A stretch of 64,000 bases of DNA from Candidatus Atabeyarchaeum deiterrae (GCA_037310415.1 CP147780.1:192001-256000); one strand, 5' to 3'. Numbered from the stretch's first letter, positions 10,359-54,215 are shown. A program made the numbers and translations. Notes: generated from the sequence alone by a model not told the origin.

Positions 10359-11481
10359 GCCAGACGAATTCCTCTTGAGGTTTCAGCTCGCCCGTTCCTA
10401 CTACAACCCTGTAGTGGCCGACTCTCCCTGTTTCAGTCTCCTCTACCGCCTCAAGTGACCCTGATACTTTCATTTTGTCTCCTATGGAGCCGATTCCCCT
10501 GAATTCTCCTATCATGGACACTACCTCAGAGGGTTTCTTGTTGTCTTCGATCTCTGACTGTTCATCAAGGGGTTCATATTGCGAGATCCTGTAAATTGCT
10601 GGGCGGAACACGGACTCCCAGTCTTCCGTCACTTCGCATAGAAATGAGAGATTAAGACCAGTTGACAGATAGGTGAACTGACCGAATTTTTCCCTTATTT
10701 CTTCATGTTTTCTGATGGCATTGAGTACGACTCTCTTCCCATTCCAGAGAAAACGATTTCTTCTCAATATATCGAACATGTTTTCCTCGAGTAAGACAAA
10801 CTGGTTTCCTTTTCCACGAACTTCGTGCAGATAGCTCATGACCTCACGGTAGTTACCAGCACCATACACTGCAATATCGATATCGCTCTGTGGATTATGC
10901 ATCCCTAGGGAAATCGAGCCATGTATGCCAAAGCTACTCATGAGTACTCCGGTCTGCTTTGAGAGATACTCGATCATCTCGATGGCGGCAGTCTCCAAGC
11001 TGTCGAGGGTCCCCTTGTTCTTCCTTTCAAGCAGTTTGGCGAGGCTTAAAGATGGTTCATACACTGCCTCAATCGAGGATTTCGGAGTCATTAAGATCGA
11101 TTTCTTGAGGTTTGGATCATAAACTACATATTCGGGGTGATAGTCTTCAAAGACTTTGATTATGCGTCCATAGTTGTCAGGTGTATAGAGCTTTTCTGGC
11201 CTGACCAGTTTTACGTTATCTAGGTTCCATTCGTAGGGGAGCCATCTTAATTTGAATTCCTTCGCCAGCTTCTTCGGAACATATTTCAGATATGAGACAA
11301 CCCGTTCTATTGGATGAAGATACCCTATCACGTAGAAAATGAATCCTTCTTCGGTCAGCATTGCGTCTCCATCACGAGGGATCCACTGTTGAATTCCTTC
11401 GGCGTGACTCTCGGTGGGTAGCAGGCTAGGTTCGCCCCCGGATAAGCTCGCTGACTCTCTTTCTGAATTCTTGCTCGGCAT
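10324..11481 (-). CDS. Predicted nucleotidyltransferase (COG1665-like, pol-beta superfamily)
   Basis: RDGD...GFIFYVIGYLHP..RVVSYLKY; GIHGSISLGMHNPQSDIDIAVYG. Confidence 0.8.
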   Translation of the reverse strand: MPSKNSERESASLSGGEPSLLPTESHAEGIQQWIPRDGDAMLTEEGFIFYVIGYLHPIERVVSYLKYVPKKLAKEFKLRWLPYEWNLDNVKLVRPEKLYTPDNYGRIIKVFEDYHPEYVVYDPNLKKSILMTPKSSIEAVYEPSLSLAKLLERKNKGTLDSLETAAIEMIEYLSKQTGVLMSSFGIHGSISLGMHNPQSDIDIAVYGAGNYREVMSYLHEVRGKGNQFVLLEENMFDILRRNRFLWNGKRVVLNAIRKHEEIREKFGQFTYLSTGLNLSFLCEVTEDWESVFRPAIYRISQYEPLDEQSEIEDNKKPSEVVSMIGEFRGIGSIGDKMKVSGSLEAVEETETGRVGHYRVVVGTGELKPQEEFVWPTRLPTIGSHP

Positions 11482-12241
11482 CTGCTATACTCATGGGTTC
11501 CTTGGATATCTCACTAATGAATGCTCTTCTAAGTTTGCTAGCTTCCTTGGAGAGTCTCACTTGGAGACTTCCAGCTGAGATCATGCCATTCAAGATCCTC
11601 CTTGTCGATTTGTCCAGATTCCTTTTGAAGGGGGATTTCTGAGCATGGCCTTCGTCATGAGTTGAACCGGAAATGTGCTCTGTTCCTTTTCGGCGAACTG
11701 ATTTCTCCTTAATCTTTGAGAGTACCATACGAATAACTTGCTCTACTGCGTCTTCTGCAGTGGATTTTTCGGAATCTATGACTAAAGCTGGTCTGTCCCA
11801 TTTGTACTTAGTGCCCGGTTGATCGAAGTTCTTCGCTGTCTCCGAGATTATTTCAATAGGTATAGGTTTGTCCCTTGCTGCATTACGTTCTTGTGCAACT
11901 TCGAGAGACACTGTCAGGTACACGATGATGTACTTCGCTCCATGTCTTGTAGCAACTTGTGCGAGTCTATGCCGAGTCGATTCATAGTAGTTCATATCAT
12001 CACTAATCACAATGTTGTCATGCTTCAAACCTTCCTCGATTAGAAGCAGATTGAGAGAGTATACAAAAGGCTCTCTTTTTGGGTCGTAGTGTTGCTCCAT
12101 GGCGGGAACCATTTCTCTAATTCTGTCTGGATCAACTACTAATGTGGGCAATCCGTAGTTAGACTCCAGTTTCCTTGCCAGTAGAGTAGCAACTTTAGTC
12201 TTGCCTGAACAAGGTAATCCACAGAGAATGATCATTAGCAT
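11426..12241 (-). CDS. pstK: O-phosphoseryl-tRNA(Sec) kinase (PSTK/Kti12 family)
   Basis: P-loop GLPCSGKT, DDMNYYESTR and RN..R...WDRP motifs, helical C-domain; Sec-cluster context. Confidence 0.82.
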   Translation of the reverse strand: MLMIILCGLPCSGKTKVATLLARKLESNYGLPTLVVDPDRIREMVPAMEQHYDPKREPFVYSLNLLLIEEGLKHDNIVISDDMNYYESTRHRLAQVATRHGAKYIIVYLTVSLEVAQERNAARDKPIPIEIISETAKNFDQPGTKYKWDRPALVIDSEKSTAEDAVEQVIRMVLSKIKEKSVRRKGTEHISGSTHDEGHAQKSPFKRNLDKSTRRILNGMISAGSLQVRLSKEASKLRRAFISEISKEPMSIADAEQEFRKRVSELIRGRT

Positions 12242-15599: not shown

Positions 15600-16595
15600 T
15601 CAGTCTGATGGCTTCCCTGAAAGTTTGTCTATATTGAAGTCGAAGACCTCGACTGAGGATTCACCATCCGAAATGAGAAGTTTTCTTGAATTAACGACCT
15701 TGCCTATAAGCTTGGAGACGACTCCGTGCTTTGAGAGAATAGAGACGCATTGATCTGCTTTCTTCGGGTCTGACGTCAATATCACCCCAAAACCAGGGTA
15801 CGCCTTCAACCATTGATCCATGTCAACGCCTGGTGGCTTTGGGATGTTGGTCAGGTCTATTTCTCCTCCGAGGTTGCTCGAATCTAGGAGCATCCCTAGC
15901 GTTCCAACGATACCCGGGTTGCTTATGTCTTTCGCGGCGGTCGCCAAATTGTCCTTCGCAATTTCGCGCATCGCTCTCAAACGATCTTCAACCTCTGCTT
16001 TCGATTTATGGGTGGTGGTGTCCCAGGCAGTCTTGAAGGCTTTATGAAAACGCCCATCTAGGTCAACAGCCGCTATTATCAGGTCATCTGGCTGCGCGGT
16101 ATTGCTTCTGATCAAAGACTTCTTGCGAACCATGCCTATTATTGAAACGCTGAGTCTATTTGCCGATGCTTCTGGGCTAAGGTGCCCCCCAACCATTGGG
16201 ACATTGAATTTCGAGCAGCCCTCCGTAATACCTTCAACAATTTTGTTTCTGATGTCACTGGATGTCGCAGCTAACGTGTTTACCATCGCAATTGGAGTGC
16301 CACCTTTGGCGGTAATGTCGTTGACGCTAACCAAGACCGAACAGTATCCAGCAAATGTTGGATCAGCATCTATCAGTCTGTCCCATATTTCTTCGGCTTT
16401 GAAAAGCAAGTAGTTATCTTTGTACCCGATATCTATCACGGCGCAGTCTTCACCAAACGATTCAATCACCTTTGCACCGAAAGGAATTGCGGCACTAATC
16501 GTGGATTTCATCCTTCTAGTGACTTCCACAATTGGCGTTTTCCTCTTCACGCCAACATAACTCTTGATAGACTCGGCTATGGGTTTCAAGTTCAT
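15600..16595 (-). CDS. PurM/SelD-superfamily protein (methanogenesis marker 2-like)
   Basis: N-terminal GVKRK, GEDCAVI, VNDITAKGG.P, VGGHL and KDISNPGIVG motifs; no N-terminal Cys/Sec motif of SelD. Confidence 0.8.
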   Translation of the reverse strand: MNLKPIAESIKSYVGVKRKTPIVEVTRRMKSTISAAIPFGAKVIESFGEDCAVIDIGYKDNYLLFKAEEIWDRLIDADPTFAGYCSVLVSVNDITAKGGTPIAMVNTLAATSSDIRNKIVEGITEGCSKFNVPMVGGHLSPEASANRLSVSIIGMVRKKSLIRSNTAQPDDLIIAAVDLDGRFHKAFKTAWDTTTHKSKAEVEDRLRAMREIAKDNLATAAKDISNPGIVGTLGMLLDSSNLGGEIDLTNIPKPPGVDMDQWLKAYPGFGVILTSDPKKADQCVSILSKHGVVSKLIGKVVNSRKLLISDGESSVEVFDFNIDKLSGKPSD

Positions 16596-16714
16596 TTTGT
16601 CATTTATCCTCCGATTTTTGGAAAGGACAAGAATTTGGACATGATGTTCAGATTCGAGATAAGTTTGCTACCTGTTTGTGAATATTCAAGTTTCTAGGAT
16701 AACGAGGAAACGAC

Positions 16715-16722
16715 TTTATATT
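16715..16722 (+). promoter_or_regulatory. Putative TATA box of the tRNA-Sec gene
   Basis: TTTATATT preceded by a purine-rich BRE-like stretch, about 35 nt upstream of the tRNA 5' end. Confidence 0.45.
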
Positions 16723-16756
16723 ACTATGGCATCTCACGTGTTGACTGAAAGCACTT

Positions 16757-16935
16757 GGCGCCCGACAGCGGGGGTGGAAGCATTCAATCCGGCATCGAGA
16801 TTGGATGTTGCCTATTCCCAAGCACTGGACTTCAAATCCGGTACACCAGAAAAACCTTGCGTATGATGGTTCTGATTGGTGTGGAGTTCGATTCGCCCGA
16901 CAATGCGGGAGCGAGAGTCTCCTCGGGCGCCGCCA
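16757..16935 (+). tRNA. selC: tRNA-Sec (anticodon UCA, 16832-16834) with three introns: 16778-16815, 16853-16876, 16893-16917
   Basis: 9-bp acceptor GGCGCCCGA/TCGGGCGCC + G + CCA; 6-bp anticodon stem ACTGGA-CTTCAAA-TCCGGT; 4-bp T-stem. Removing the three introns gives a 92-nt 9/4 tRNA-Sec. Confidence 0.92.
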
Positions 16936-16939
16936 ACCT

Positions 16940-17623
16940 TCAATTTGCGAGATGAGGCGTGCCATCCACTATCCTAGAGATTCTCCTCCTCCAGTCTAGC
17001 GCCTTGACTGCTACTACCCTGGATCTGTCATTGTCCAAAGGAATGCCCTGAGGGTGGGTGTGTAGCATCTCCATTACCTCGCACGTCTCAATGTGTATGG
17101 GGTCAAATCCTTCAAGCGTCCTGATCAGAGTCTCCCTGATAATGCCAATCGTCGGGTATATAATGCCAACGAGTGTTTTTGATAAGATACTGTCTATGGC
17201 TTTGTCCAACTTCATTTCGACTTTTATTATTTCGAATAGTCTTCCCTTTTCCGTTTCATCCATTTTCTTTACTTTCTCCGTCAGGGTCTTTATTCTCTCC
17301 TTGTACTCGGCGAGTTGGTGTTGCGGTTCTTCGGGTTCGTCTGAGCATACCATCAGCTCGATTCCACCGCTCGAAGTTGTGAAGAGCTTTACCAGAAGTT
17401 GCCGATCTGAGGCTGTTTTTGAGGATATGATCGCCTCGCCTACAAAAGAAGATCGATCACCAGTTACTGTCCCTACATTCTCATAGCACCTGCTTCTAAT
17501 CGACGTCACGGAATGATAGGTGATTGCGAAAATACATTGCGCACCAAGATCATCAATCGGGAAAACCTCAGTTTTGCAGGCGAACCCAGACGTGATCCTA
17601 TTCCAATCAGGAGCCTCCGACAC
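16940..17623 (-). CDS. Hypothetical protein (227 aa)
   Basis: GTG start after GAGGAGTGG; alpha/beta N-terminal part, coiled coil, helical C-terminal part. Confidence 0.6.
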   Translation of the reverse strand: MSEAPDWNRITSGFACKTEVFPIDDLGAQCIFAITYHSVTSIRSRCYENVGTVTGDRSSFVGEAIISSKTASDRQLLVKLFTTSSGGIELMVCSDEPEEPQHQLAEYKERIKTLTEKVKKMDETEKGRLFEIIKVEMKLDKAIDSILSKTLVGIIYPTIGIIRETLIRTLEGFDPIHIETCEVMEMLHTHPQGIPLDNDRSRVVAVKALDWRRRISRIVDGTPHLAN

Positions 17624-17690: not shown

Positions 17691-19082
17691 TCACGTGCTT
17701 TTTCCCTGGATCTTCTTCTTCAAAGTCTGATTTATCCCTTGCCTCAGCTTTTCTACTGCCAATGTTATGTCATTTTCTTGTGATCCTATGGCAGCATTCA
17801 TCACTACATACTGGCACGGGTAATTGTTGCAGCAGGAACCCCAATTCCCCGCTGGAACCACTCTTGGTCCGCTCAACCTCAAAGAGTATAAGATCCCTCC
17901 GAGAACACTCGGATCGACCCTGGAAATCGTCATCGCACTCGCGATGGGGTTATTAGTGTTAAGAAGGCGTTCTCCAAGAGAGTCAGCCATCTCTGCAAGG
18001 AGTTTCTGAAGAAGCTTCTTGTTTAACTGCTGAATATCACGGAGTTTCTCATATTTGTCGATTCCAAGCGAGAGGATGGCGGCTAAGAACTGGTAGATAG
18101 GAGCAGAAGAAGCCCGTCCCGCATAATGTGATGCCACTTTCTCAACAAATTTCTCATCTGGGGATGCCACAATTGCTCCTCCGACAGGTGTTAAGAAGTT
18201 CTTGTCCGTACTCTGTATTACCGCATCTACTCGTCCAGCATTCATTGCGAGATTGATTTCTCGCATGATTTCTCTGCTCTGCACTCCATATGCGTTGTTT
18301 ATAACGTGGAAGATATTCTTCTCCGAGGCAATCCTAGCGATCTCCTTGATGGAGTCCTGTTCTCTTGGCGGGAAGAAAGTTGTCGTAGAGAGAATTGCAC
18401 AGCACTGATCGTCGATGGCTTTAGTTACATCTTCTGGCGGGACGCGCACGGCGTCTCCATAAACTTTTCCTTCAACAGTTCTGGGTTTCATGTTCACAAG
18501 GCTCAAGGCTTTCAGAGGTGAGTCATGGTCTATTCTTGGATATACCACAACGTTTTGTCCTCCGTTGGTCGAGTCTCTCACCGTTGCCAAGGTAAGTGCT
18601 ATTGACATGCCAGTAGCCATGGGAATCACAATGGCTGACTTAAGATTAGGAGCACCAAACCTCTTCATTGCATCCAAGGCCAAGATATTCGACAACTCGT
18701 AGAGAACTGACGCACCAGGAGCCTTCGGCTGTGGAGCCAAGAGTGCACCACTTCGTCCAACGCCGTGACAGAACCCTGACGCCAACTCGGAGGTCAGGGG
18801 CGAAGCGACTCTCGCTTCTCGTTCGCCCACTCGCACATTCTCGAGATCCTTATCAACGTCCATCATTGATAGAAGCTTGAGAAAGAAGGCGATGATATCA
18901 TCGCCCCAGCCTGACTTCGGAATTCTCCTTTGTTGAAGAAGTTCTCTAACGAGGTCAAGTTGCGTATTAAGGGCCATGAATGAGCGTTTCAGCATGTTTT
19001 GAGGTATGAGCCCCTTAAGGTAATCCTCAAACTTGTCCAAATCAGGTACCTCAGTTGACCTTTCTATACTAATAGTTCCCAT
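17691..19082 (-). CDS. spcS: O-phosphoseryl-tRNA(Sec) selenium transferase (SepSecS)
   Basis: GEREARV, FCHGVGRSG...QPKA.G, PMATGMS, NNAYGVQ, QSTDKNF (PLP Lys) and YAGRAS motifs. Confidence 0.93.
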   Translation of the reverse strand: MGTISIERSTEVPDLDKFEDYLKGLIPQNMLKRSFMALNTQLDLVRELLQQRRIPKSGWGDDIIAFFLKLLSMMDVDKDLENVRVGEREARVASPLTSELASGFCHGVGRSGALLAPQPKAPGASVLYELSNILALDAMKRFGAPNLKSAIVIPMATGMSIALTLATVRDSTNGGQNVVVYPRIDHDSPLKALSLVNMKPRTVEGKVYGDAVRVPPEDVTKAIDDQCCAILSTTTFFPPREQDSIKEIARIASEKNIFHVINNAYGVQSREIMREINLAMNAGRVDAVIQSTDKNFLTPVGGAIVASPDEKFVEKVASHYAGRASSAPIYQFLAAILSLGIDKYEKLRDIQQLNKKLLQKLLAEMADSLGERLLNTNNPIASAMTISRVDPSVLGGILYSLRLSGPRVVPAGNWGSCCNNYPCQYVVMNAAIGSQENDITLAVEKLRQGINQTLKKKIQGKST

Positions 19083-19115: not shown

Positions 19116-20504
19116 TCAACCTAAAATCAATTCCCGATAGCGCTTCAGTGACACTTTCTCTCCAAGGTTAGGCATCTCACCAAACTCAGCCACTACCAGC
19201 CCCCTCGTTCCGAAAGTTGAAGATACTATGCCTTTGACACCCCTTTCGGTGGTGATTCCCTCTCCTATGATCCTTTCTCCTCCGATCTTGCTCTTTGACA
19301 GACCTCCGATCAGTACGCTCCCCGCACGAAGGACCCTGGCAACGATACCAGTTTTCTCATCAAAGATACACAGTTGAGGCTGCGAGGGCAATCTTTCCAA
19401 GACAATGCCACTAGCGGCTATCCTTAGGGCTGTCGGCGACAAACTCAGCAATGAAAGCAGAATCTTATCTCCAGGCTCAGCGATTATTGGTTGCCGCGGT
19501 CTCAGATACATCTGGAACTCAACACCCCCCTGCGCAGACGTGATCATTTCCTTGTTCTCTTCAGACCGGTAAGGGTATACTTCTGCTTGAACCGATGACA
19601 TACCTACAGTCATATGCATGGCCAGTCCTGGTTTTACCTCGCGGTTGAAGAACCTGTTGATCTTAGCTTTGGCTATTATGTGACTAGTTGGCTTCAGGGA
19701 ACCAAGTAGACAAGCGTAGTATCCTCTGTGAACGGCTCTGTGATCAACGCCTTGCAGCGCCATGCCAACCCGATCACCAGCTTCAGCCATTTTCCTTGGT
19801 TCTTTAAATGTTTGAATCGATTTCACGCGGCTCCTGATGTTTGCAGGCGATATCTCAACCTCCTCATCCACCCTTATCGTTCCACGAACAATTGTACCTG
19901 TCACGACTGTTCCAACACCCTTTATTGGAAAAGCATGGTCTATGACCATTCTGAACTTGCCCAGAGGATCTCTTTTCGGAATAGTTAGTATCGACAAAAG
20001 AAGATCTTTCAGCTCTGAAATCCCTGAGCTTCTCAGAGACGAAACAGGCGCGATAGGTGCATTTCTGAACCTGGAATCAGATAGTATGTTTTGGATTGAT
20101 TCTTTGACTGCGGTCACCTTTGTTTCATTTACGAGGTCAATTTTAGTCAAAGCAACTAGTACACTCTGTATTTCCAAGCTCTCTAATAGGACCAAGTGTT
20201 CACCCGTCTGTGTCTGAGGGCCTTGCGTTGCAGACACAACAAGTATTGCAGAGTCGATTATACTCGCACCACTCACTGCGGTTCTTATCAGGTCTGCATG
20301 TCCCGGAACGTCCACTAGGGTTACCAAGTAATTGGCCAACGTGAATGCTGTGAAGCCTATGTCGATGCTCATTTGCCTTCTCTTTGCTTCTGGATGTCTA
20401 TCCAAACCGGCAGTCGAGACTTTCTCGCTTAGTGCTCTCGCTAGTTCGGTTTTACCATGATCAACGTGACCGAACAGTCCCACGTGTACGGAGGTTAATC
20501 CCAG
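19116..20504 (-). CDS. selB: Selenocysteine-specific elongation factor (archaeal/eEFSec type); probable CTG start
   Basis: GHVDHGKT, SIDIGF, DVPGHADL, QTGEH, TKID and IDHAF.IKG.GTV.TGT motifs; domain IV motif FGTRG. Confidence 0.92.
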   Translation of the reverse strand: MGLTSVHVGLFGHVDHGKTELARALSEKVSTAGLDRHPEAKRRQMSIDIGFTAFTLANYLVTLVDVPGHADLIRTAVSGASIIDSAILVVSATQGPQTQTGEHLVLLESLEIQSVLVALTKIDLVNETKVTAVKESIQNILSDSRFRNAPIAPVSSLRSSGISELKDLLLSILTIPKRDPLGKFRMVIDHAFPIKGVGTVVTGTIVRGTIRVDEEVEISPANIRSRVKSIQTFKEPRKMAEAGDRVGMALQGVDHRAVHRGYYACLLGSLKPTSHIIAKAKINRFFNREVKPGLAMHMTVGMSSVQAEVYPYRSEENKEMITSAQGGVEFQMYLRPRQPIIAEPGDKILLSLLSLSPTALRIAASGIVLERLPSQPQLCIFDEKTGIVARVLRAGSVLIGGLSKSKIGGERIIGEGITTERGVKGIVSSTFGTRGLVVAEFGEMPNLGEKVSLKRYRELILG

Positions 20505-23529: not shown

Positions 23530-24162
23530 CTACATTTTCCTCCACTCAAAAATCAGATAGTTCACAATGCCTGAGGGAGGAATCGTTGCTATTATGAACT
23601 TCTTTCTCACCGTGGTTGCCAGTCTTCCTGCTCTCACTGTTTCTATTGGGTTGATTGTCGTGCCTTTTGGTAGAGCATGGACTATGAAGGGTGCGTGATC
23701 TATTCCTGGACCGTGCTGGTAGACTCCAAAGTCTGCACCGAACTTCAGTCCCGGTCTAACCACATAGCCTCTTTCCCTAAGATCTTTGTAGACAACGTAT
23801 TTATCATCAAATTCGAAGTAGACTTTTGTTGCATAATCCTGCAGCTCTCGGGCAGTCATCTGATTCTTTGTCTTGCTGTTTATCAGTTTTATTCTCTCTT
23901 TCTCGAGCAGGTAGAGAGCTTCAAGAAGTGAGAGCTCGACTGGGCACGTAAAGTCGAATGTCTTCGGCTTTCTTATTGAGATCGGCTGTCCGTAATAACC
24001 TTCCTTGTAGAGTTTTGATCCTTCTTTTGGATTCCACACTACGATGTGTGCCCCAATCAATTCGGCGGTAACCGGCTCGGTAAGCGCTTTCTCCTTCGAG
24101 ACTTTCTGCGCATCTTCCTTGGACAAATCACCGTGCCAAGATGTTTCGGTTGATCCTGTCAT
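23530..24162 (-). CDS. endA: tRNA-intron endonuclease, catalytic subunit
   Basis: VYKDLRERGY.VRPGLKFGADFGVY..GPGIDHA...TVRKK contains the Tyr/His/Lys triad. Confidence 0.92.
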   Translation of the reverse strand: MTGSTETSWHGDLSKEDAQKVSKEKALTEPVTAELIGAHIVVWNPKEGSKLYKEGYYGQPISIRKPKTFDFTCPVELSLLEALYLLEKERIKLINSKTKNQMTARELQDYATKVYFEFDDKYVVYKDLRERGYVVRPGLKFGADFGVYQHGPGIDHAPFIVHALPKGTTINPIETVRAGRLATTVRKKFIIATIPPSGIVNYLIFEWRKM

Positions 24163-24242
24163 TAGACTGTCACCAATATATTGGCTAGTGTAGATACCCT
24201 GATCTGCCATATGCCCTGAGATAGTTGGAGTGGGATTTCGCC

Positions 24243-24920
24243 TCATTTGCTTCTTGACATCGCAACTATTCGTATCGCGTCTGCTGCCCGTTCAGCCGTA
24301 TCTGCCATCTCTTCAAAATGAGCTATTAATTCTTTCAGCATTATGAGGGTTCTCGGTTCCATCTTCGACATGTAAGAGGAACGACCTATTCGTCTCTGTA
24401 CTATGTCCGCCTCTTTTTCAAGAGCATCAACTTCATCTGCCAGTTCTATAGCCTTGCTGGGGTTCTGTGTTAACATGAATATTGAAAGCCGAAGTTTATC
24501 CGTAGCCATGATGAGTTTCTCCACGAGCAATTGCATCTCTTTTCTCAAGTTTATGTCTGGCTTCCAATCTTGAATGGCTAGAATGCGAAATCCGGTGCCT
24601 TCAGCCACGTCGGCTATTTCATCAACCACAAGCGCTAGCCGCATTAGGTCTTCTCGGTTAACCATAGTGGTTGCCTTTGATAGTTGGTCAAGCAATTCAT
24701 GCTTCAGTTCGTTGGCATCACTCTCAATTCTTGATATTCTGTCAAGCCTCTCTTCAGCCTCCTTGTAGTCGCCCTCAACCCAGTCATCGTATAGGAGGCT
24801 GAGCTCTTTGACAACCGAAACAATTTTGCGGCAGTGATCCTGAGCAATGTCAATAGCTTTTTGCTCTGCTGAAGCATCATAAGGATCAATTGTCGACGTA
24901 GCTAGCTCCACCTCAATCAA
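24243..24920 (-). CDS. DUF47/PhoU-like phosphate transport regulator
   Basis: IESDAN..REDL..VDEIAD and LEKEAD..EEMADTAERAAD repeats. Confidence 0.85.
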   Translation of the reverse strand: MIEVELATSTIDPYDASAEQKAIDIAQDHCRKIVSVVKELSLLYDDWVEGDYKEAEERLDRISRIESDANELKHELLDQLSKATTMVNREDLMRLALVVDEIADVAEGTGFRILAIQDWKPDINLRKEMQLLVEKLIMATDKLRLSIFMLTQNPSKAIELADEVDALEKEADIVQRRIGRSSYMSKMEPRTLIMLKELIAHFEEMADTAERAADAIRIVAMSRSK

Positions 24921-51847: not shown

Positions 51848-51938
51848 GGGCCCGTGGCCTAGTCAGGATAGGGCGTCGGCCTCCGAACTTATGGGGGAAA
51901 GCCGATGGTCGTGGGTTCAAATCCCTCCGGGCCCGCCA
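51848..51938 (+). tRNA. tRNA-Arg(CCG) with 13-nt intron 51887-51899 at position 37/38
   Basis: GGGCCCG/CGGGCCC acceptor, GTTCAAATC T-loop, encoded CCA, BHB-type intron. Confidence 0.93.
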
Positions 51939-54124: not shown

Positions 54125-54215
54125 GGGCCCGTGGCCTAGTCAGGATAGGGCGTCGGCCTTCGAACTTATGGGGGAAAGCCGATGGTCGTGGGTTCAAATC
54201 CCTCCGGGCCCGCCA
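54125..54215 (+). tRNA. tRNA-Arg(TCG) with 13-nt intron 54164-54176
   Basis: Identical to the 51848 gene except the first anticodon base. Confidence 0.93.

Follow-up and report, generated by a model that had tools for sequence, protein, structure and literature searches.

Split tRNA-Sec genes have a precedent among Asgard archaea. Mariotti et al. 2016 (PMC4989117) reported a Lokiarchaeota tRNA-Sec whose T-loop contains one intron, of 31 nt, and a 2022 review (PMC9499178) treated this intron as the only archaeal tRNA-Sec case. The gene described below resembles it in its Asgard host, 9/4 fold, 7-bp D-stem and non-canonical intron in the loop of the T-arm, and differs in having three introns rather than one. 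A parallel in intron number comes from Thermoproteales and other Crenarchaeota, whose tRNAs contain up to three short introns with BHB or relaxed-BHB motifs in the D-, variable- and T-regions, as here (Sugahara 2008, as cited in PMC11291895). Crenarchaea process such introns with an (alpha-beta)2 EndA, in which a Crenarchaea-specific loop confers cleavage of non-canonical introns and the variant K44A cannot excise a D-loop intron (Hirata et al. 2011, PMC3241643). An EndA encoded close to the present gene aligns best to the crenarchaeal catalytic subunits and keeps their lysine-bearing loop. In our case, by contrast, the host belongs to the Asgard archaea and the interrupted gene is that for tRNA-Sec; Sec is not known from Crenarchaeota.

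The genome is that of Atabeyarchaeota_2 (Atabeyarchaeia-2), published by Valentin-Alvarado et al. 2024 (Nat Commun 15:6384; PMC11291895). Supplementary Data 4 of that paper lists, as tRNA #43, a SeC UCA gene at 208757-208932 with 3 introns observed and the remark 'Identified with Secmarker only'; the same row gives an Infernal score of 36.3 and 0 introns predicted by tRNAscan-SE. The publication gives 36.3 as the Secmarker score, set against a threshold of 35. The table also has an Atabeyarchaeia-1 SeC entry at 196286-196460, again with 3 introns and found with Secmarker only; this is the orthologue from genome G001 that we compare below. Because the gene is listed there at the same coordinates with three introns, the core finding is already public: the gene and its intron count are published. 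The published start coordinate, anticodon and intron count are the same as ours, and the published gene stops at the discriminator base, 208932, leaving out the encoded CCA that comes next. The first-pass annotation of this DNA had mentioned earlier notice of intron-bearing tRNA-Sec in Asgard archaea, which is right as far as Lokiarchaeota are concerned, and had underestimated what was known of the gene itself.

The SeC rows of the published table hold no intron coordinates, and the main-text passages of PMC11291895 that we examined do not mention the split tRNA-Sec and give neither a BHB analysis nor a comparison. Here we add the splice map, the BHB analysis, support from other genomes, a link to the endonuclease and intron sites shared with Freyarchaeia. 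The paper reports Sec machinery and selenoproteins in these genomes and states that 92-95% of their tRNA genes carry introns, over half of them several; a split tRNA-Sec is for this reason expected here, not exceptional. The value that remains lies in the exact splice map, the sites shared with Freyarchaeia and a proposed correction of the published Freyarchaeia count.

Results

Anatomy of the gene and its three introns

We analysed a window of 64,000 nt, bases 192001-256000 of a single-contig genome of 2.76 Mb (G000:C1:192001-256000), in which window base 16757 is genome base 208757. The tRNA-Sec gene occupies 16757-16935 on the plus strand, 179 nt of genomic DNA, and its sequence matches the transcription given in the first-pass annotation. 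A brute-force search over deletions traced the 92-nt product of the first-pass annotation to removal of 38, 24 and 25 nt (Table 1); the third deletion can slide by up to 2 nt with the product unchanged.

Table 1. Predicted exons and introns of the tRNA-Sec gene, and other features discussed (window positions unless another locus is named)
Feature	Coordinates	Strand	Description
Exon 1	16757..16777	+	9-nt acceptor 5' strand, CA, 7-nt D-stem 5' strand, D-loop bases 1-3 (UGG)
Intron 1	16778..16815	+	38 nt, D-loop between loop bases 3 and 4
Exon 2	16816..16852	+	last D-loop base, D-stem 3' strand, anticodon arm, variable-stem 5' strand, GAAA loop
Intron 2	16853..16876	+	24 nt, boundary of variable-arm loop and its 3' stem
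Exon 3	16877..16892	+	variable-stem 3' strand, T-stem 5' strand (GGAG), T-loop bases 1-6 (UUCGAU)
Intron 3	16893..16917	+	25 nt, T-loop between loop bases 6 and 7, standard position 59/60
Exon 4	16918..16935	+	last T-loop base, T-stem 3' strand, acceptor 3' strand, discriminator G, genomically encoded CCA
PSTK homologue	11426..12241	-	TIGR03574, E 2.7e-49, 167.9 bits; best family match, below curated cut-off 290.5
Asgard putative selenocysteine system protein	16940..17623	-	227 aa; NF045535 Sel_Asgard, 134 bits vs cut-off 132
SepSecS	17691..19082	-	PF05889, E 1e-118; TIGR03531, 487 bits
SelB/EFsec	19116..20483	-	TIGR00475, 285.9 bits vs cut-off 242; PF21440 aSelB_III
EndA catalytic subunit	23530..24246	-	PF01974 and PF02778; crenarchaeal-type specificity loop
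Second EndA paralogue	L048:1192-1788 (G000:C1, ~625.3-625.9 kb)		198 aa
Freyarchaeia tRNA-Sec loci	L080 (G037:C1:810100-810850); also L081, L082, L110	- (L080)	

Each insert is flanked by a BHB motif, at 16772/16810, 16847/16871 and 16887/16912, respectively. The two 3-nt bulges on opposite strands and the 4-bp helix between them are present in 3/3 introns and in 3/3 Atabeyarchaeia genomes. The inserts, bulges and helices that the first-pass annotation had proposed agree with both the sequence and our motif scan. The BHB literature (Marck and Grosjean 2003, cited in PMC11291895) places the cuts behind the second base of both bulges, and removing the inserts in this way restores the tRNA described below. 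The same loose motif scan returns dozens of BHB-like sites per 300 nt, for which reason the motif by itself is weak evidence.

The three motifs differ in the helices around the bulges. Intron 1 has the central helix GGGT/GCCT with bulges GGA and ATT, an inner hairpin of 11 bp and an outer helix of 2 bp. The central helix of intron 2, CAGA/UCUG, consists of 4 Watson-Crick pairs between bulges AAA and AUU; its outer helix, described as relaxed in the first-pass annotation, is only 1 bp, and the inner helix is 3 bp in this genome. The motif is thus HBh'-like, and by the strict hBHBh' definition its outer and inner helices make a weak substrate. Intron 3 combines the central helix UUCG/CGAG and bulges AUU and AGU with an outer helix that is the 4-bp T-stem, and with an inner helix in which a G-A mismatch separates 1 bp from 4 bp.

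Upstream of the gene, at window positions 16715-16722 (35-42 nt before the tRNA-Sec 5' end), we noted a TTTATATT box. The related genomes G001 and G002 have TTTAAGAA at a similar distance upstream of tRNA-Sec. The TTTATATT box may be the TATA box of the gene, which would imply a short 5' leader.

The predicted spliced RNA and its identity as tRNA-Sec

The minimum-free-energy fold of the spliced 92-mer is an exact 9/4 cloverleaf at -47.4 kcal/mol, with the UGGU, GAAA and UUCGAUU loops that had been predicted. Nine Watson-Crick pairs form the acceptor stem, and the T-arm has a 4-bp stem, GGAG/CUCC. The D-arm has a 7-bp stem, GCGGGGG/CCCAAGC, in line with the 7-bp D-stem rule for archaeal tRNA-Sec (PMC5330540); 5 of these pairs are Watson-Crick and 2 are adjacent G-A oppositions, so that the tandem G-A mismatch described earlier is real in this genome. 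The anticodon UCA lies in a 7-nt CUUCAAA loop on a 6-bp stem, ACUGGA/UCCGGU, and the spliced structure bears out the earlier reading that this arm has no intron. Once intron 2 is removed, the variable arm is a 6-bp stem closed by the GAAA loop. The acceptor stem is followed by the discriminator G73 and then by the encoded CCA.

ARAGORN called the spliced form tRNA-SeC(tca) and made no call on the genomic, unspliced form of the locus. On genomic sequence, Rfam at gathering score also gave no match there. At a relaxed threshold, RF01852 scored 25.9 bits against a gathering score of 47 on the genomic form, in which the introns are penalised; the alignment was partial and mis-registered and still placed a 24-nt insert exactly at the intron 2 site. 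Together with the absence of introns from the published tRNAscan-SE prediction, these results bear out the expectation that standard scanners would miss the gene, and the three-intron gene makes plain why the Sec trait of Asgard genomes escapes automated annotation. In a search of the whole complete genome, no other locus reached the tRNA-Sec cut-off, and 16757-16935 is the genome's only recognisable tRNA-Sec gene.

Comparison with related genomes

Two genomes of the same family and another genus, G001 (Atabeyarchaeia-1) and G002, contain the orthologous gene, of 178 and 177 nt, respectively, with inserts at the same three sites (39/22/25 nt in G001 and 37/23/25 nt in G002). Across these two and our genome (G000), exons are 96-98% identical and introns 62-70%. 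Exon 1 shares 20 of its 21 bases in each pair of genomes, exon 2 shares 35-37 of 37, exon 3 15-16 of 16 and exon 4 all 18, and both G73 and the encoded CCA are conserved in all three. One base of the anticodon stem varies in G001 and G002. Their D-stems have 6 Watson-Crick pairs plus a single G-A, versus two G-A in G000.

Despite base changes in the introns of G001 and G002, the central 4-bp helices and the inner hairpins are kept. The intron 1 strand that faces exon GGGU reads GCCU, GCCC or ACCC, turning a G-U pair into G-C and a U-G pair into U-A. For intron 3, UUCG pairs with CGAG or UGAA across the three Atabeyarchaeia genomes, and the G-A mismatch in the inner helix of G000 is a U-A pair in both relatives.

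Because the spliced fold, the contrast between ARAGORN calls on the spliced and unspliced forms, and the pattern of exon and intron conservation in three genomes point the same way, the tRNA-Sec reading is beyond chance. We are highly confident that 16757-16935 (+) is a real tRNA-Sec gene (UCA), interrupted by three short BHB-type introns. From its anatomy, its conservation and the enzyme set of the genome we infer transcription, the actual cleavage sites, ligation and function. A search of sequencing runs listed no RNA dataset containing the stretch; four metatranscriptome runs from the same studies contained no contig on the locus and are uninformative either way on expression and splicing.

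As a wider reference we aligned 16 intronless Asgard tRNA-Sec genes from four other families. All have a 7-bp D-stem, a 4-nt D-loop and G73; the D-loop is UGGU in 15 and UGGA in one, and 14 of the genes have the T-loop UUCGAUU, the other two UCCGAUU. An Asgard-specific covariance model (R1), built only from intronless Asgard tRNA-Sec and searched on genomic loci, matched all six split genes with E values from 7e-8 to 4e-5. The alignments are local and partial, because three long inserts cannot be bridged in a single alignment. The exon 2 part of our gene was aligned by this model as well as by the Rfam tRNA-Sec model, and the R1 model placed inserts in the D-loop in Freyarchaeia and in the variable loop in G002 (23 nt, at the intron 2 site).

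We also surveyed Asgard genomes with the pattern GGRCTTCAAAYCC and obtained matches in 271 out of 400. Inspection of 66 loci showed that roughly half were coincidental hits within other sequence, and for this reason the tally cannot be read as a number of tRNA-Sec genes. A simple search for 9-bp acceptor pairs proved too noisy and was replaced by spliced alignment. In the Lokiarchaeial genomes sampled (family f30) the tRNA-Sec genes are intronless, and the intron-bearing Lokiarchaeota tRNA-Sec sequence was not recovered among the genomes sampled. In another family (f9), the tRNA-Sec at locus L114 (G183:C157:4300-5050) has one insert, of 29 nt, within the 5' strand of its D-stem.

In nearly every Asgard tRNA-Sec gene that we saw, CCA comes directly after the discriminator G. 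Besides window positions 16933-16935, the loci with encoded CCA are L009-L018, L080-L086, L093-L094, L101-L102, L107, L110 and L114; the exceptions are L092 (G168) and L106 (G170). This is contrary to the general statement of the 2022 review (PMC9499178) that archaeal tRNA-Sec genes do not encode CCA.

Alternative readings of the locus

The intron 1 motif offers more than one register. Two alternative BHB motifs would remove 36 nt (16779-16814; GGTG/TGCC, bulges GAA and TAT) or 34 nt (16780-16813; GTGG/TTGC, bulges AAG and CTA) from a gene that is still real and spliced, leaving a D-loop of 6 or 8 nt. With 3-4 bp, their outer helices are longer than the 2 bp of the 38-nt register, and by our own reading of the printed sequences the ambiguity extends to G001 and to Freyarchaeia. 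The 38-nt register, however, retains a central helix with 2-4 Watson-Crick pairs in 6/6 genomes, and we prefer it because it is the only one to give the 4-nt D-loop found in 16/16 of the intronless Asgard tRNA-Sec aligned. We regard a cut of 36 or 34 nt as unlikely; our placement of the intron 1 junction draws on comparison and not just on the motif.

A more radical reading takes the locus for a tRNA-Sec pseudogene, decaying or inactive, from which the inserts, or some of them, are not removed. Rejection of the locus by standard scanners, the tandem G-A mismatches in the D-stem of G000 and the poor outer helix of intron 2 would all fit decay. Yet this is the sole tRNA-Sec candidate of a complete genome that has SepSecS, SelB, PSTK and reported selenoproteins; its exons have stayed nearly constant over two genera while the introns drift; compensating changes maintain the intron helices; and G73 and the encoded CCA are conserved, all of which makes a pseudogene very improbable. 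Still less credible, to the point of being negligible, is that the region codes for protein and that its tRNA-like features are incidental. A 105-aa minus-strand ORF (16648-16965) does overlap the whole tRNA-Sec locus, but the open stretches there in G001 and G002 run to only 45-57 codons, the 105-codon ORF is not conserved, and conservation tracks the exon and intron blocks of the tRNA rather than codon positions.

Splicing enzymes and a proposed pathway

The first-pass annotation had proposed that Sec decoding here depends on a broad-specificity EndA. The window encodes an EndA 6.6 kb from the tRNA-Sec gene (Table 1). Its closest solved relatives are the 186-aa chain B of Aeropyrum pernix EndA (3p1z and 3ajv, E 2e-46), followed by the enzymes of Sulfolobus tokodaii (2cv8) and Pyrobaculum aerophilum (2zyz_B). 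Residues 61-236 align to chain B of 3p1z, and the His for which the variant 3ajv has Ala is conserved. The Tyr and Lys that we take to be catalytic, from our own reading of the 3p1z alignment, are conserved too. The loop ...QPISIRKPKTFDF... aligns without gaps to ...QPLDVEKPRGADF..., in which the K of 'KP' is chain position 44. In line with the proposal, the enzyme carries the loop and the lysine that are associated with broad specificity (PMC3241643).

A second EndA paralogue of 198 aa lacks the loop, where it has a 7-residue gap, and shows Thr/Ser in place of the aligned catalytic His. Its matches are to the N-terminal (structural) repeat of alpha'2 models and, weakly, to models of the beta subunit; in this it is closer to the alpha'2 repeat than to the crenarchaeal beta subunits. 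The two chains would fit a heteromeric enzyme of the catalytic subunit encoded in the window and the His-less paralogue. This suggests that the Asgard EndA could be a split alpha'2 enzyme that acts like an (alpha-beta)2 one, with a crenarchaeal-type loop on its catalytic chain. The genome also encodes the ligase RtcB, at 983 kb.

A pathway can be proposed from these components. The 179-nt precursor would be transcribed, and each intron would fold with adjacent exon bases into the arrangement of 3-nt bulge, 4-bp helix and 3-nt bulge. The splicing endonuclease, probably a heteromer of the product of 23530-24246 and the 625-kb paralogue, would cut after the second base of each bulge, and RtcB would ligate the four exons. 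The resulting 9/4-fold tRNA with its encoded CCA would then be serylated; PSTK would phosphorylate it, SepSecS would convert it and SelB would deliver it. With three splicing events on the way to the mature tRNA, all selenoprotein synthesis in this organism would depend on a broad-specificity endonuclease and a ligase.

Intron sites shared with Freyarchaeia

In four Freyarchaeia genomes (G037, G153, G046 and G155) the tRNA-Sec gene has D-loop and T-loop intron sites identical to those of Atabeyarchaeia, the D-loop intron being 28 nt and the T-loop intron 32-33 nt long. The central helices of these introns use the same exon strands, GGGU and UUCG. The variable-arm intron is absent from the tRNA-Sec of all four genomes. 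G037 is the published complete SRVP Freyarchaeia genome, for which Supplementary Data 4 of PMC11291895 lists a tRNA-Sec at 810415-810536, 122 nt long with one intron. Our two-intron model spans 150 nt plus CCA. On this comparison, the published entry would undercount the introns, as two appear to be present where one is listed.

Because the same sites and the same exon bases are used in two Asgard classes (3 and 4 genomes), the D- and T-loop introns are maybe ancestral. It is possible, although we put it forward tentatively and lean slightly against it, that these two introns are of old origin and have been passed on vertically, as opposed to having been inserted recently at random, and that Atabeyarchaeia later gained the third, in the variable arm. 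If true, split tRNA-Sec would be commoner among Asgard archaea than the single archaeal case of the review suggests. Intron-bearing tRNA-Sec seems, in any event, to be distributed more widely in Asgard archaea than the 'only archaeal case' of the 2022 review (PMC9499178).

The Sec gene neighbourhood

The genes for PSTK, SepSecS and SelB all lie within 6 kb of the tRNA-Sec gene, and genes for TFB, a small GTPase and TBP are interleaved among those of the Sec cluster. The ORF for the putative selenocysteine system protein begins 5 nt past the end of the tRNA-Sec gene; a Pfam search of this ORF gave no match. We considered the AIR-synthase-like gene at 15600-16595 (-) as a SelD with an upstream UGA and rejected it: real stop codons precede the ORF, and the gene is a better match to 'methanogenesis marker 2' (TIGR03267), over the cut-off, than to SelD. 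This match occurs in an organism described as non-methanogenic.

Elsewhere in the window, at 51848-51938 and 54125-54215 (+), two 91-nt tRNAs score 54-56 bits with Rfam, and ARAGORN left their anticodons undetermined. By their coordinates they correspond to two intron-containing entries in the published table, tRNA-Arg(CCG) and tRNA-Arg(UCG).
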